Shown here one piece after another: positions 30,001-33,000 of a stretch of 64,000 nt of DNA. The position numbers are program-made. Each line of letters begins with the position of its first letter. Position 1 is the first letter of the stretch. The stretch lies in NCBI RefSeq assembly GCF_054482525.1, contig NZ_CM137006.1, one strand, 5' to 3'.

Positions 30001-33000
30001 CTCGGTTTCACCGACCACATGAACCTGATAGCTATGACGGGCATTCAGGGCATCAAGTACCACCTGATTGATATCGGCAAACGTCAGTTGGATACCCGCG
30101 TCTGCCAGCAGTTTACCGATAAAGCCACGACCGATATTACCTGCGCCAAAATGTAATGCTTTCATAGTATTAACCTTCATCAATGTTTTTACCCGAGAGG
30201 GCTGGGGTGAGGCTTTTCCCTCACCCAAACCCTCTCCGTGAGGAGAGGGGCCGCGCCGGATGCGGCGTAAACGCTTTATCCGGCCTACAAGAACGTGCAA
30301 ATTCAACAAACTGCGCTTTGTTTTGTAGGCCTGATAAGCGTAGCGCATCAGGCAATAAGCCCCACCTTCTCCATGTGGAGAGGTGGGATTGGATTACTTA
30401 CGACCTGCCAGCAGTTCCAGCACTTCATCCACGCTGGTGGTGTGTGCCAGACGCTCGATGACGGATTCATCATCCAGTGCATTGGTCAGGCTGGTGATAA
30501 CCTGAATGTGCTCGTTGTTACGGGCAGCAATACCAATCACCAGACGGGCAATGTCATCTTCTTCTTCACCGAAGCGCACGCCTTCCGGGTACTGGCAGAA
30601 CACCACGCCCGTTTTGAGTACGCGATCTTTCGCTTCAACCGTACCGTGTGGCACCGCGATAGACTCACCCAGATAAGTCGGGGTCAGTTTTTCACGATCC
30701 AGCATCGCCTGAACGTATTCTGGCTCAACGTAACCGCCTTTCACCAGCTGCTCGCCAGCAAAACGAATCGCTTCTTCTTTGGTTGCCGCTTTGCGACCGA
30801 GGAAGATGTTCTCCGCGCCCAGTTTGAACAGGTTAGCACTGGAATCGTCAAAGCTGTCTTTCAGACTGTCTTTCACTTTTACTTCGTTTTCAGTATGGCG
30901 CTGGGCAGCAACCAGACGTTCGGTCAGGCTGGTGTACAAGCCGCTGTCGAGGAAGTTGGTCAGCGAAATATGCTGTGCCTGCGGAACCTGGCGCATAGCG
31001 CGTTCGGTCAGGTCACGGTGAGTGATGACCAGGTCCACATCTGGCGGCAGGTTGTTGATCGCGCTGTTAGTAACAGAAATCTGCGACAGACCTGCATCCT
31101 GAATTTTCTTACGCAGCACACCTGCGCCCATCGCACTGGAACCCATACCGGCGTCACAGGCAACGATGATTTTACGTACGTGGCTCAGGTCGTTAGTCAC
31201 ATCGCCCGCAGACAGCGGGGACGCACCTTTAGACTCAGCTTTCATGTCCTGCATACGACGAGTTGCTGCTTCAATATCATCTTCTTCTTTCACTTTGCTG
31301 GTTTTCAGCAGAATGGCAGAGACAACGAAGGAGACAGCCATCGCCGCACACACACCCGCGATGTTAGCGAAATAAGCACCTTTTGGTGTCATCGCCAGTA
31401 CCGCAAGGATAGAACCCGGAGATGCCGGAGAAACCAGACCACCGCCCAGGATAGTCAGCGTGAACACGCCAGTCATACCGCCGAGAATAACGGCCAGAAT
31501 CAGACGTGGATTCATCAGCACATACGGGAAGTAGATTTCGTGGATACCGCCCAGGAAGTGGATGATTGCCGCACCGCCCGCAGACTGTTTAGCGCTACCA
31601 CGACCAAAGAACATGTACGCCAGCAGCACGCCCATACCCGGACCTGGGTTAGCTTCAATCAGGAAGAAGATGGATTTACCCAGTTCATGGGACTGCTGAA
31701 TACCCAGCGGCGAGAAGATACCGTGGTTAATGGCGTTGTTGAGGAACAGGATTTTCGCCGGTTCAACAAAGATAGACGCCAGCGGCAGCATGTCATGGAC
31801 AACCATGAAGTTAACGCCCGCAGCCAGCATTTTGGACAGGGCTTCAACAATCGGGCCAATGCCGAGGAATGCCAGAATAGCGAGGATCATCCCGATGATG
31901 CCTGCGGAGAAGTTATTCACCAGCATCTCAAAACCGGATTTGATCTTACCGTCTACCCAGCGGTCGAAGTGCTTAATGCACCAGCCGCCCAGCGGACCTG
32001 CAATCATCGAACCGAGGAACATCGGCATATCTGCGCCGACGATAACGCCCATGGTGGTGATGGCACCGACTACACCGCCACGTTCGCCGCCTACCAGCTT
32101 ACCACCGGTATAACCGATCAGCAGCGGCAGGAGATAAGTGATCATCGGCCCGACCAGCTTCGCCAGCGTTTCGTTCGGTAACCACCCTGTTGGAATAAAT
32201 AACGCGGTGATGATACCCCACGCGATAAACGCGCCGATATTTGGCATCACCATGTTGCTGAGGAAACGACCAAAGCTTTGCACTTTGATCTTAATATCGG
32301 ATGACATAAAAACACCCCTTCTTATGTTTGCTGTCGCGCAGGCTGGAAGCCCGAGGTTTTTTGTTAATGTGGCGGCAGAGGTAGCCGGACCTTGTAGATA
32401 CTGCGAAATCTGGCACTGAATCGGTTAACTGTCCAGTCGACGGCCTTTTGTGTGATATCGGTCACATAAATATAGGGGGTAGAGAGGTAATTGACGTGAT
32501 GCTCATCACAAAACGCTTGTGTAAAAAAGCAACAAGGCGGCGATTTTCGCTAAAAATGGCATTTAAATGTGAGTAATGTCACATTTTTGTTTTGTTGGTT
32601 TGTTGAATCTTTGTGATCTGAATCACAAGATATTTTCTTACGACGTTCACCTGATGTGATCTGCAGCATGTTATGCCCTCGTCATAAAATCGTTATGTAA
32701 CTAAGCAACTCATCACCTCTAAAAATTATTCTTTGGTGTTATGGCGAGAATCGCGAACCCGAATTATTGTCAAAATATCAGCCTGACTCCCTTCTGGCTG
32801 CCAGCCAAAAAACAACACTGATAAACGTGAATCCGAGGCAGATATGTTTCTAAACTATTTCGCGTTGGGAGTGCTGATCTTCGTCTTTCTGGTGATTTTT
32901 TATGGAATCATCGCGATACATGACATCCCTTATCTGATTGCCAAAAAGCGCAACCATCCCCATGCCGACGCTATTCATACGGCGGGCTGGGTGAGCCTGT

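Follow-up and report, generated by a model that had tools for sequence, protein, structure and literature searches.

Results

The mtlA-mtlD spacer in E. coli is, judged from its sequence, almost certainly packed with extragenic palindromic repeats of two known families, which are transcribed within the mtlADR mRNA. One BIME-1 (z1 iREP, L linker and y REP) is flanked on both sides by BoxC elements. The BoxC hairpins are near-constant across related genera and for this reason are more likely to matter than the REP pair, which varies between strains.

The spacer and its genes

The window, the whole stretch of 64,000 nucleotides analyzed here, is E. coli DNA and matches strain PCN033 at 100%. The ORF list and annotation, in the case of mtlA that of the matching E. 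coli genomes, place three genes on the minus strand. These are mtlA (30394-32307), which codes for the PTS mannitol transporter EIICBA and ends in a TAA stop codon (30394-30396), mtlD (29017-30165), which codes for mannitol-1-phosphate 5-dehydrogenase, and mtlR (28430-29017), downstream of mtlD. By these ORF coordinates the gap between mtlA and mtlD (30166-30393, minus strand) is 228 bp, the length given in the first-pass annotation. The range assigned there to the palindromes, 30180-30393, holds the spacer content and leaves out only the mtlD ribosome-binding region. That A/U-rich translation-initiation region (30166-30189, minus strand), with the Shine-Dalgarno sequence GAAGG at 30174-30178 as read from the sequence, is nearly invariant between species. 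Small ORFs in the spacer, such as one of 44 aa at 30221-30355 on the minus strand, were rejected; they cross the strain-variable REPs, and the loop-length indels between species are not multiples of three.

To determine how stable the spacer RNA is predicted to be, the 228 nt of the minus strand were folded. The predicted free energy is -105.7 kcal/mol against -69.5 +/- 4.5 kcal/mol for dinucleotide shuffles (z = -8.0), and 0 of 200 shuffles folded as well. Such a very stable fold is what the first-pass annotation had expected on this strand. The additional palindromes it mentioned are also there: besides the REPs the gap has three, at 30230-30237/30242-30249, 30195-30212/30219-30236 and about 30361-30387.

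With GC-rich hairpins in an intercistronic position, the spacer could be a partial terminator or attenuator, intrinsic or Rho-dependent, reducing read-through into mtlD-mtlR. We consider this very improbable. One of the C-rich BoxC arms always stays single-stranded and might be used by Rho, and Espeli et al. reportedly tied BIMEs to Rho-dependent attenuation in 2001. However, an intrinsic terminator combines a GC-rich hairpin with a U-tract, and no U-tract lies 3' of the spacer hairpins, where the next letters are GGGUAAAAAC. A scan of 29900-30700 returned 0 terminator-like sites, and the promoter scan of the spacer found no sigma-70-like site. Both pattern scans of a Pantoea spacer were also empty. 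PIT/BoxC elements are reported to have neither promoter nor terminator activity (PMC4666352).

The REP pair is a BIME-1

The first-pass annotation described an inverted REP pair of BIME type, and consensus matching bears this out. A z1-type REP (30325-30353, minus strand; an iREP on the mRNA strand with its CTAC end at the linker side) agrees with the z1 consensus at 29/29 positions (E 4e-12 within the window). In the opposite orientation, a y-type REP (30255-30288, minus strand; 5' GTAG on the mRNA strand) agrees with the y consensus at 33/34 (E 1e-12 within the window). The z1 REP folds at -13.2 kcal/mol (z -4.1) and the y REP at -16.1 kcal/mol. The consensus sequences used for these calls matched other K-12 copies at 100%. 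Full consensus matching was used for the calls, and a short degenerate REP pattern was dropped as unspecific (10 matches versus 8 expected). Only one other REP-like match occurs in the window, at 53755-53782. A REP-containing query finds 5-35 places per E. coli genome, in line with the generic definition of a REP as a highly repeated imperfect palindrome of 30-40 nt.

By its sequence the pair is a textbook BIME-1 of z1, a 36-nt L linker (30289-30324) and y. Like other BIME-1 elements (RIP/RIB, as defined in PMC3333891), it has z1 and y REPs in inverse orientation, is single-copy and extragenic, and is transcribed at the 3' end of a gene. The CTAC and GTAG ends face the linker, with the mRNA strand reading ...CAGGCCTAC, the 36-nt linker and GTAGGCCGG.... 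The long L linker is conserved, as shown by its alignment with the linkers of two other K-12 BIME-1 elements, at 2,538,570 and 2,549,496, with which it has the core CGTGCnAATTCAAnAnAtTG in common. As expected for BIME-1, the window has a single z1-L-y unit, with tandem z2-y units only in other strains. At the same site, other strains differ in carrying either atypical chimeras (z1, y and repeated z2-y units) or nothing.

L linkers of BIME-1 elements frequently carry an IHF site (PMC3333891), and the mtl linker, homologous to BIME-1 L linkers with the ATTCAAnnnnTTG core, has an IHF-like core, ATTCAACAAACTG (30301-30313, plus strand), in its alignment with the K-12 linkers. It is therefore conceivable that the linker binds IHF as in RIP/RIB and acts at the DNA level, shaping nucleoid architecture or supercoiling between the genes, though from the sequence this appears improbable. 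The window allele has a T-to-C change, giving CTG where the K-12 copies have a conserved TTG, and the putative site agrees with WATCAANNNNTTR at 7/9 specified positions against 8/9 for the K-12 allele. The site is also gone in the roughly 36% of E. coli genomes without this L linker. A blastn search of all E. coli genomes with the linker found its own locus only, a result that reflects the sensitivity limit of short seeds and is not evidence against family membership.

An Rfam scan of 28900-32800 (E up to 1) gave only a sub-threshold match to naRNA4. The spacer was not accepted as a member of this REP325 nucleoid-associated RNA family (RF02564), as it scored 33.2 bits, below the gathering threshold of 59.5, and the likeness is sequence similarity through the shared REP.

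The flanking hairpins belong to the BoxC family

The hairpins that the first-pass annotation took to flank the BIME are present, but they are members of a separate known family and not BIME accessories. This family, BoxC, has also been named PIT elements, TMECO and the HPG1/HPG2 motif (Bergler 1992; Hoyne and Maher 2000, 2002; Holder 2015; Kaplan 2016). Our assignment uses the pattern and table in PMC4666352 and the architecture of the hrpB-mrcB BoxC pair. The larger element, recognized from inverted repeats I1 and I7 and from folding, is a module (30190-30250, minus strand) of one type-A unit, then 6 nt, then a truncated type-B unit in reverse complement (CCTCACCCCAGCCCTCTC). On the mRNA its 5' part consists of a (CCCCUCUCC), the loop UCAC, a' (GGAGAGGG) and UUU, and its 3' part of b (GGGUGAGG), the loop GAAAAG, b' (CCUCACCC), CAG, a2 (CCCUCUC) and GGGU. 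The module folds at -37.7 kcal/mol (z -3.9), and the unit and its truncated inverted partner end about 25 nt before the mtlD start.

The mtl copy shares with BoxC the segments CCCTCTCC, a loop, GGAGAGGG, a 3-nt link and GGGTGAGGG. It has the inverted-pair layout of hrpB-mrcB, with units on opposite strands less than 50 bp apart, is intergenic and near gene 3' ends, and begins shortly past a stop codon. Rearrangement between strains, reported for TMECO loci, is also seen at the mtl locus. The copy does not match the strict published pattern, CCCTCNCCC N3-6 GGGNGAGGG N3 GGGNGAGGG. It reads CCCTCTCCT / CGGAGAGGG / TTT / GGGTGAGGG, with 8/9 positions in each of blocks 1 and 2, and the two deviations lie opposite each other in the stem, leaving it one base pair short of the strict pattern. 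Since orthologues in other genera (e.g. L018, L021 and L031) match the pattern exactly, the E. coli copy is best filed by sequence as a degenerate orthologous relative and not as a strict member. It differs further in being absent from the list of 23 K-12 copies and in the truncation of its 3' partner. A canonical BoxC pair used as the query matched 11 places in the median E. coli genome, as expected of a dispersed multi-copy family. With the mtl copy as the query, blastn against all E. coli genomes found its own locus only because no 11-nt seed is shared. The mtl copy is also unlike typical BoxC loci in its retention: 99% of E. coli genomes have it, as do 65 other species, among them Salmonella, a genus said to be without the family.

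PMC4666352 describes BoxC as a triplex motif and PMC5100583 describes it as a G-quadruplex-hairpin-duplex switch, and GGAGAGGG-UUU-GGGUGAGGG might accordingly adopt a non-B structure, an intrastrand triplex or a G-quadruplex. This is extremely improbable. The first tract of the E. coli copy is G2, and the sequence in Salmonella and Citrobacter is GGUUGAGGG. Triplexes of the purine motif do not form in RNA, and in vivo footprinting did not support a triplex. We rejected these structures as the conserved feature, as compensatory changes in natural variants (L054 and L073) preserve Watson-Crick pairing although the G-tracts are broken.

On the other side of the BIME-1 is hairpin C, CCCACCUCUCC-ACAU-GGAGAAGGUGGG (30361-30387, minus strand), which folds at -20.2 kcal/mol (z -3.8). 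A 20-nt direct repeat that is 85% identical connects it with 30229-30248, and by this sequence likeness hairpin C is a partial copy of the first BoxC hairpin that has since diverged. The 94-bp spacer allele lacks hairpin C. Its first base is, in the window, 7 nt past the mtlA stop codon, close enough to consider an effect on translation. Liang, Rudd and Deutscher reportedly described in 2015 a trans-translation mechanism for REPs near stop codons, and a stable hairpin this near the end of mtlA, within 15 nt of its stop codon, could similarly stall the terminating ribosome and lower MtlA. A stable hairpin starts within this distance in 71 of 79 species, whichever repeat provides it, a count from the mtl junction alone. 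Against this reading, the element next to the stop codon is not a REP and the first REP is 41 nt downstream, and we regard it as distinctly unlikely.

Conservation between species

The core of the BoxC module is 94% identical across the 65 other species, compared with 54% at mtlD four-fold sites. In the alignment 89-97% of cells are paired, and seven module pairs show double changes against about three in shuffles (0/500). The alignment was an N-padded structural one, used in place of MAFFT, which misaligned the 5' arm of hairpin 1. G.U outnumbers A.C in the module pairs by 95 cells to 5, which argues for pairing in the sense RNA. Pantoea has a different GC-rich hairpin pair (about -43 kcal/mol) in a spacer of equal length. 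Conservation of the module could also reflect a sequence constraint common to the whole BoxC family and not a role specific to this locus.

Two pairings of the module are preserved. One has tandem hairpins (a:a' and b:b'), the other one long hairpin (a':a2 and b:b'); a:a' is paired in 97% and the full long hairpin including b:b' in 89.5%. They are near-isoenergetic in 67 sequences (mean difference +0.33 +/- 2.4 kcal/mol), 29 of which favor one state and 38 the other. The segments a, a' and a2, with two partners each, are almost invariant, while b and b' have compensatory changes in L054 and L073. The module might therefore be a bistable RNA, or an RNase III-type processing site, that controls the processing or expression of mtlD-mtlR, and the terminating mtlA ribosome may bias the choice of state. 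Consistent with this, the ancestral 94-nt spacer has the start of segment a about 10 nt past the stop codon. However, a long distance now separates the stop codon from the module in E. coli and several other genera, and neither state touches the mtlD Shine-Dalgarno sequence. Triple complementarity moreover follows automatically when BoxC units form an inverted pair, so a switch need not be the reason that it evolved. Overall this reading is unlikely.

Variation of the REP pair between strains

Among 5,425 E. coli genomes, about 17% have a 94-bp spacer without a REP and about 19% have additional REPs in a spacer of 318-520 bp. E. coli spacers come in at least six lengths, including 94, 228/229, 318/319, 419 and 520 bp, and the long ones contain a 101-bp tandem unit. 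At exactly this position, other genera carry REP types of their own or an ERIC element. Differences in BIME copy number between strains are a known property of these elements (PMC3333891). As the REP pair is missing from some strains and expanded in others, it cannot be an essential regulatory device, and any effect of the REPs would be non-essential.

The variation could mean that the REP pair is selfish or neutral DNA with no role in the mtl operon, brought to a permissive position past the stop codon and rearranged there by the REP-associated tyrosine transposase or by recombination. We consider this rather unlikely. A BIME-1 with hairpin C is also found in E. albertii and a cryptic Escherichia lineage (L006 and L007) and has thus persisted for a long time, and selfish REPs leave the conserved BoxC module unexplained.

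Discussion

Both kinds of repeat in the spacer are already known: REP/BIME elements between the cistrons of E. coli sugar operons are found in textbooks, and BoxC has repeatedly been described. The best explanation overall, which we hold to be somewhat probable, is that the BoxC and BIME-1 spacer acts as an mRNA barrier between mtlA and mtlD. How it might do so, by stabilizing the mRNA or by setting the ratio of mtlA to mtlD expression, is drawn from the REP literature and is more tentative. On the mRNA the elements would form a row of very stable stem-loops that neither end transcription nor cover the mtlD ribosome-binding site. After a cut in the A/U-rich stretch before mtlD, the stem-loops would stop 3'-to-5' exonucleases (PNPase, RNase II and RNase R). 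The mtlA segment would then outlast the mtlD-mtlR segment, which would fix how much EII-Mtl there is relative to MtlD and MtlR. The basic barrier would be the conserved BoxC module, with the REP pair as a later, dispensable and strain-variable addition that provides fine tuning at most. Decay of mRNAs containing REPs is known to require RNase R and PNPase (PMC12320835). In the available Term-seq conditions the mtl operon was silent.

The paradigm for such a barrier is the malE-malF REP stabilizer, likewise composed of REPs inside a polycistronic sugar-transport operon, 3' of a transporter or binding-protein gene. Stable stem-loops without a terminator are common to both, the fit of mtl being one of position and predicted stability alone. 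Unlike malE-malF, the mtl REPs are flanked by a second and more conserved repeat family.

Mannitol-1-phosphate is toxic without MtlD (PMC11784389) and the repressor MtlR is titrated by EII-Mtl (PMC13421365). The balance between EII-Mtl on one side and MtlD and MtlR on the other is thus physiologically critical, and an intercistronic element setting it would be relevant. As a counterpoint, stabilizing mtlA over mtlD could make mannitol-1-phosphate toxicity more likely.

The one lead that merits further work is the conserved BoxC module. The BoxC pair before mtlD may be an exapted repeat, a sense-strand RNA whose two folds are near-isoenergetic and which, under purifying selection across the Enterobacteriaceae, Salmonella included, sets mtlD-mtlR against mtlA output, a speculative reading to which we give a low probability. 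To our knowledge no function has been demonstrated for the BoxC family in 30 years. If the reading is true, mtlA-mtlD would be the first locus with evidence of function for BoxC/PIT/TMECO, and the natural E. coli spacer alleles (94, 228/229 and 318-520 bp) would be a ready allelic series. An orthologous BoxC copy in 65 other species, beside a natural series of REP presence, absence and copy number, makes this spacer a concrete place to test function.

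Organization of the mtlA-mtlD spacer

The spacer between mtlA (30394-32307) and mtlD (29017-30165) covers 30166-30393, in agreement with the 228-bp gap given in the first-pass annotation. These two genes and mtlR (28430-29017) are all on the minus strand, which is the mRNA sense of the spacer. E. coli strain PCN033 matches the window at 100%. On the mRNA the spacer opens with the mtlA stop codon UAA and six unpaired nucleotides, after which comes hairpin C (30361-30387; CCCACCUCUCC-ACAU-GGAGAAGGUGGG). A z1-type REP (30325-30353) lies 3' of hairpin C and is separated by a 36-nt linker (30289-30324) from a y-type REP (30255-30288). 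Between the y REP and the mtlD initiation region is a GC-rich module (30190-30250), read in order as CCCCUCUCC, UCAC, GGAGAGGG, UUU, GGGUGAGG, GAAAAG, CCUCACCC, CAG, and CCCUCUC. The last part of the spacer is A/U-rich and forms the mtlD initiation region, in which GAAGG stands nine nucleotides 5' of the AUG. A weak hairpin at 30166-30186 (AUUGAU/GUUAAU) would place GAAG of the mtlD Shine-Dalgarno sequence in its loop; in many species AUUAAU replaces AUUGAU, turning a G.U pair into A-U.

Downstream of mtlR-yibT-yibL, at the place of lldP in K-12, a 1750-aa ORF (21025-26277, minus strand) codes for a trimeric autotransporter adhesin with ESPR signal, YadA head, stalk, and anchor domains, which makes the region strain-specific. 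The adjoining 227-aa ORF (26321-27004) had no Pfam match.

The REP pair is a BIME-1

The two inverted REPs noted in the first-pass annotation are indeed present: the y REP matches its consensus at 33 of 34 positions and the z1 REP at 29 of 29, in inverse orientation (E about 1e-12 within the 64-kb window). Other K-12 copies match both consensus sequences at 100%. Elsewhere in the 64-kb window, a solitary z2-like REP at 53755-53782 (about 93% over 28 nt) is the one REP-like match. Ton-Hoang et al. (PMC3333891) define a BIME-1 as a single-copy element whose two REPs, a z1 and a y, are inversely oriented and lie on either side of a long, well-conserved L linker, often with an IHF site. In the mtl pair GTAG and CTAC point toward the linker, and the linker can be aligned with those of the two BIME-1 elements located in 200 kb of K-12, in the yfeS/cysM and yfeW/yfeX intervals, with CGTGCnAATTCAAnAnAtTG as common core. 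The mtl pair is thus, in every sequence feature, a BIME-1 member. Against Rfam, the mtl region gave only a sub-threshold match to naRNA4 (REP325; 33 bits, threshold 59.5), as the REP is shared with naRNA4.

IHF binding is a rival explanation of how the spacer may work. The IHF-like core of the linker is ATTCAACAAACTG (30301-30313), where the window has CTG and the K-12 mtl allele and the other two K-12 linkers have TTG. Of 9 consensus positions, the candidate motif fits 7 in the window and 8 in the K-12 mtl allele. A linker of the window type is present in 434 genomes, about 8% of E. coli.

The flanking hairpins belong to the BoxC family

BoxC was first described at fabI (envM). The motif GAGAGGGTTAGGGTGAGG is treated in Holder et al. 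2015 (PMC4666352) and Kaplan et al. The former use the name TMECO and equate it with both the BoxC repeat of 1990s work and Hoyne and Maher's PIT element; they give the pattern CCCTCNCCC N3-6 GGGNGAGGG N3 GGGNGAGGG and tabulate 23 K-12 copies. Copy no. 9 of that table (NC_000913, 1,351,204-1,351,239) lies some 165 bp 5' of fabI, in line with the equation of TMECO with BoxC in that paper. The motif is intergenic and close to gene 3' ends, and two copies are often inverted relative to each other at a distance of less than 50 bp (Kaplan et al.).

In the mtl module, a type-A unit is joined by a 6-nt loop to a type-B unit in reverse complement that lacks its final arm. Apart from the missing arm, the layout is that of the full inverted BoxC pair in the K-12 hrpB-mrcB spacer; the hrpB-mrcB pair starts 13 nt past the hrpB stop codon. 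The E. coli mtl copy misses the strict TMECO pattern by one base pair, and the published K-12 table does not list it; orthologues of the module in other genera agree fully with the pattern. In architecture, location, and family context the spacer hairpins agree with BoxC/PIT/TMECO, of which they are a degenerate orthologous relative. A 20-nt direct repeat (85% identity) links hairpin C with the first BoxC hairpin, of which it is a partial, diverged duplicate. The first-pass annotation was right that hairpins flank the REP pair, but these belong to a separate known family. More canonical BoxC units (CCTCACCCTAACCCTCTC..., GAGAGGGCCGGGGTGAGG) lie downstream of mtlR in five Enterobacter loci (L020, L022, L027, L028, and L031; about 4660-5360), showing it to be a dispersed family there.

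Length variation in E. coli

We surveyed spacer length in 5,425 complete E. coli genomes through an even 60-row sample of the ranking, with 59 rows informative. The K-12 type of 229 bp was found in 33 of the 59 and the window type of 228 bp in 5. Another 11 had 318-520 bp, with z1, y, and then one to three additional 101-bp z2-y units (an atypical BIME), and 10 had 94 bp without any REP. The spacer is accordingly a length-polymorphic hot spot, with alleles of 94, 228, 229, 318/319, 419, and 520 bp (L001-L005). The 94-bp class accounts for 933 of the 5,425 genomes (17%). Two direct BoxC-hairpin copies border the 134-bp difference between the 94- and 228-bp alleles. As hairpin C and both REPs are also present in E. 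albertii and a cryptic Escherichia lineage, the 94-bp allele is most simply a secondary deletion between these direct repeats. Such a deletion would fit the known variation of BIME copy number among strains (PMC3333891) and the instability reported near TMECO loci (PMC4666352).

Conservation across genera

The mtlD locus was fetched for 80 species representatives and the mtlA-mtlD spacers were extracted. In most Enterobacteriaceae they are 91-110 nt, with little beyond the BoxC module and the mtlD initiation region. Any additional material always lies after the mtlA stop codon and 5' of the module. Citrobacter, Salmonella, Phytobacter, and Cedecea each have REPs of their own there, Klebsiella has short palindromes, and Citrobacter werkmanii, C. 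youngae, and strain RIT691 carry an ERIC/IRU element of about 125 nt. We identified this element by AGTAAGTGACTGGGGTGAGCG, which we take to be the ERIC2 primer sequence. Loci L008-L053 (about 2280-2420) thus present one spot with independent arrivals of various small repeats.

For the E. coli REP pair, selfish DNA is a rival reading. Across 65 species (L006-L074, about 2400-2500) the stem and link columns of the module average 94% identity to the window copy, versus 54% at four-fold degenerate sites of the adjacent mtlD. The module is kept at ≥95% identity in 99.4% of E. coli genomes, whereas the hrpB-mrcB BoxC pair reaches that level in only about 61%. Salmonella, reported to be without the BoxC/TMECO family, keeps the module in front of mtlD.

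Pairing was counted on a structure-guided alignment of 67 sequences: 97% for the small hairpin a:a', 89% for b:b', and 89.5% for the full long hairpin (a':a2, link, and b:b'). Seven pairs have changes on both sides, as in GGGTGAAAGG/CCTTTCACCC (L054) and GGGAAAGGG/CTTTCCCC (L073), compared with about 3 in shuffles; none of 500 shuffles had as many. G.U cells outnumber A.C cells 95 to 5, counted as cells that are not independent events, and this excess is expected if selection acts on pairing in the sense-strand RNA. The two alternative folds are nearly isoenergetic (mean difference +0.33 +/- 2.4 kcal/mol), and 29 sequences prefer one of them and 38 the other; a BoxC switch or a processing site is the rival that bears on these folds.

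Pantoea species have no BoxC in the spacer, which in this genus and relatives (L069, L071, L072, L075-L080, and L082-L085; about 2407-2500) is 93-99 nt. Pantoea carries two different GC-rich hairpins (GGGGCGGGC..GCCCGTCCC and GGGGCGG..CCCGCCC, then UUUCGUCAUUU) of about -43 kcal/mol in a spacer as long as that with BoxC. The conserved trait seems to be a structured spacer of about 93-99 nt. Ribosome stalling near the mtlA stop codon is another explanation to weigh, as a stable hairpin begins no more than 15 nt past that codon in 71 of 79 species.

Predicted folding and possible function

The transcribed spacer is made of BIME-1 and BoxC repeats and is predicted to fold very stably. A minus-strand folding check of the kind proposed in the first-pass annotation gave -105.7 kcal/mol for the 228-nt RNA of the whole spacer, versus -69.5 +/- 4.5 in dinucleotide shuffles (z = -8.0). 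Individually, hairpin C (-20.2 kcal/mol, z -3.8), the z1 REP (-13.2, z -4.1), the y REP (-16.1, z -1.4), the whole BIME (-43.6, z -4.0), and the GC-rich module (-37.7, z -3.9) are all predicted to fold. In the whole BIME the z1 and y REPs base-pair with each other around the linker, and the mtlD Shine-Dalgarno region is mostly unpaired in the predicted folds. Transcription attenuation would be an alternative use of these hairpins; a pattern scan found no terminator-like or promoter-like pattern in the spacer, and BoxC/PIT elements have neither promoter nor terminator activity (PMC4666352). G-quadruplex or triplex formation is a further rival reading; the BoxC/PIT literature states that RNA cannot form purine-motif triplexes and that in vivo footprinting does not support a triplex.

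BIME-1 and BoxC repeats are both already known, making the finding as flagged ordinary; the K-12 mtlA-mtlD REPs were reportedly noted by Davis et al. in 1988 when the operon was sequenced. The sole candidate for novelty is the deep conservation, specific to this locus, of the BoxC pair 5' of mtlD, Salmonella included; we found no description of it in the searchable literature.

The malE-malF REPs are the paradigm for an upstream mRNA part outliving the downstream part. On the most likely reading, which follows this paradigm, an endonucleolytic cut in the A/U-rich stretch 5' of mtlD would leave stem-loops that bar 3' exonucleases, and the mtlA part would outlive the mtlD-mtlR part. The basic function would fall to the conserved BoxC module, with the REP pair as a tunable accessory that can be dispensed with. 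Decay of REP-containing mRNAs requires RNase R and PNPase (PMC12320835). As mannitol is toxic under MtlD deficiency (PMC11784389) and the repressor MtlR is sequestered by EII-Mtl (PMC13421365), the ratio of mtlA to mtlD-mtlR is physiologically relevant.
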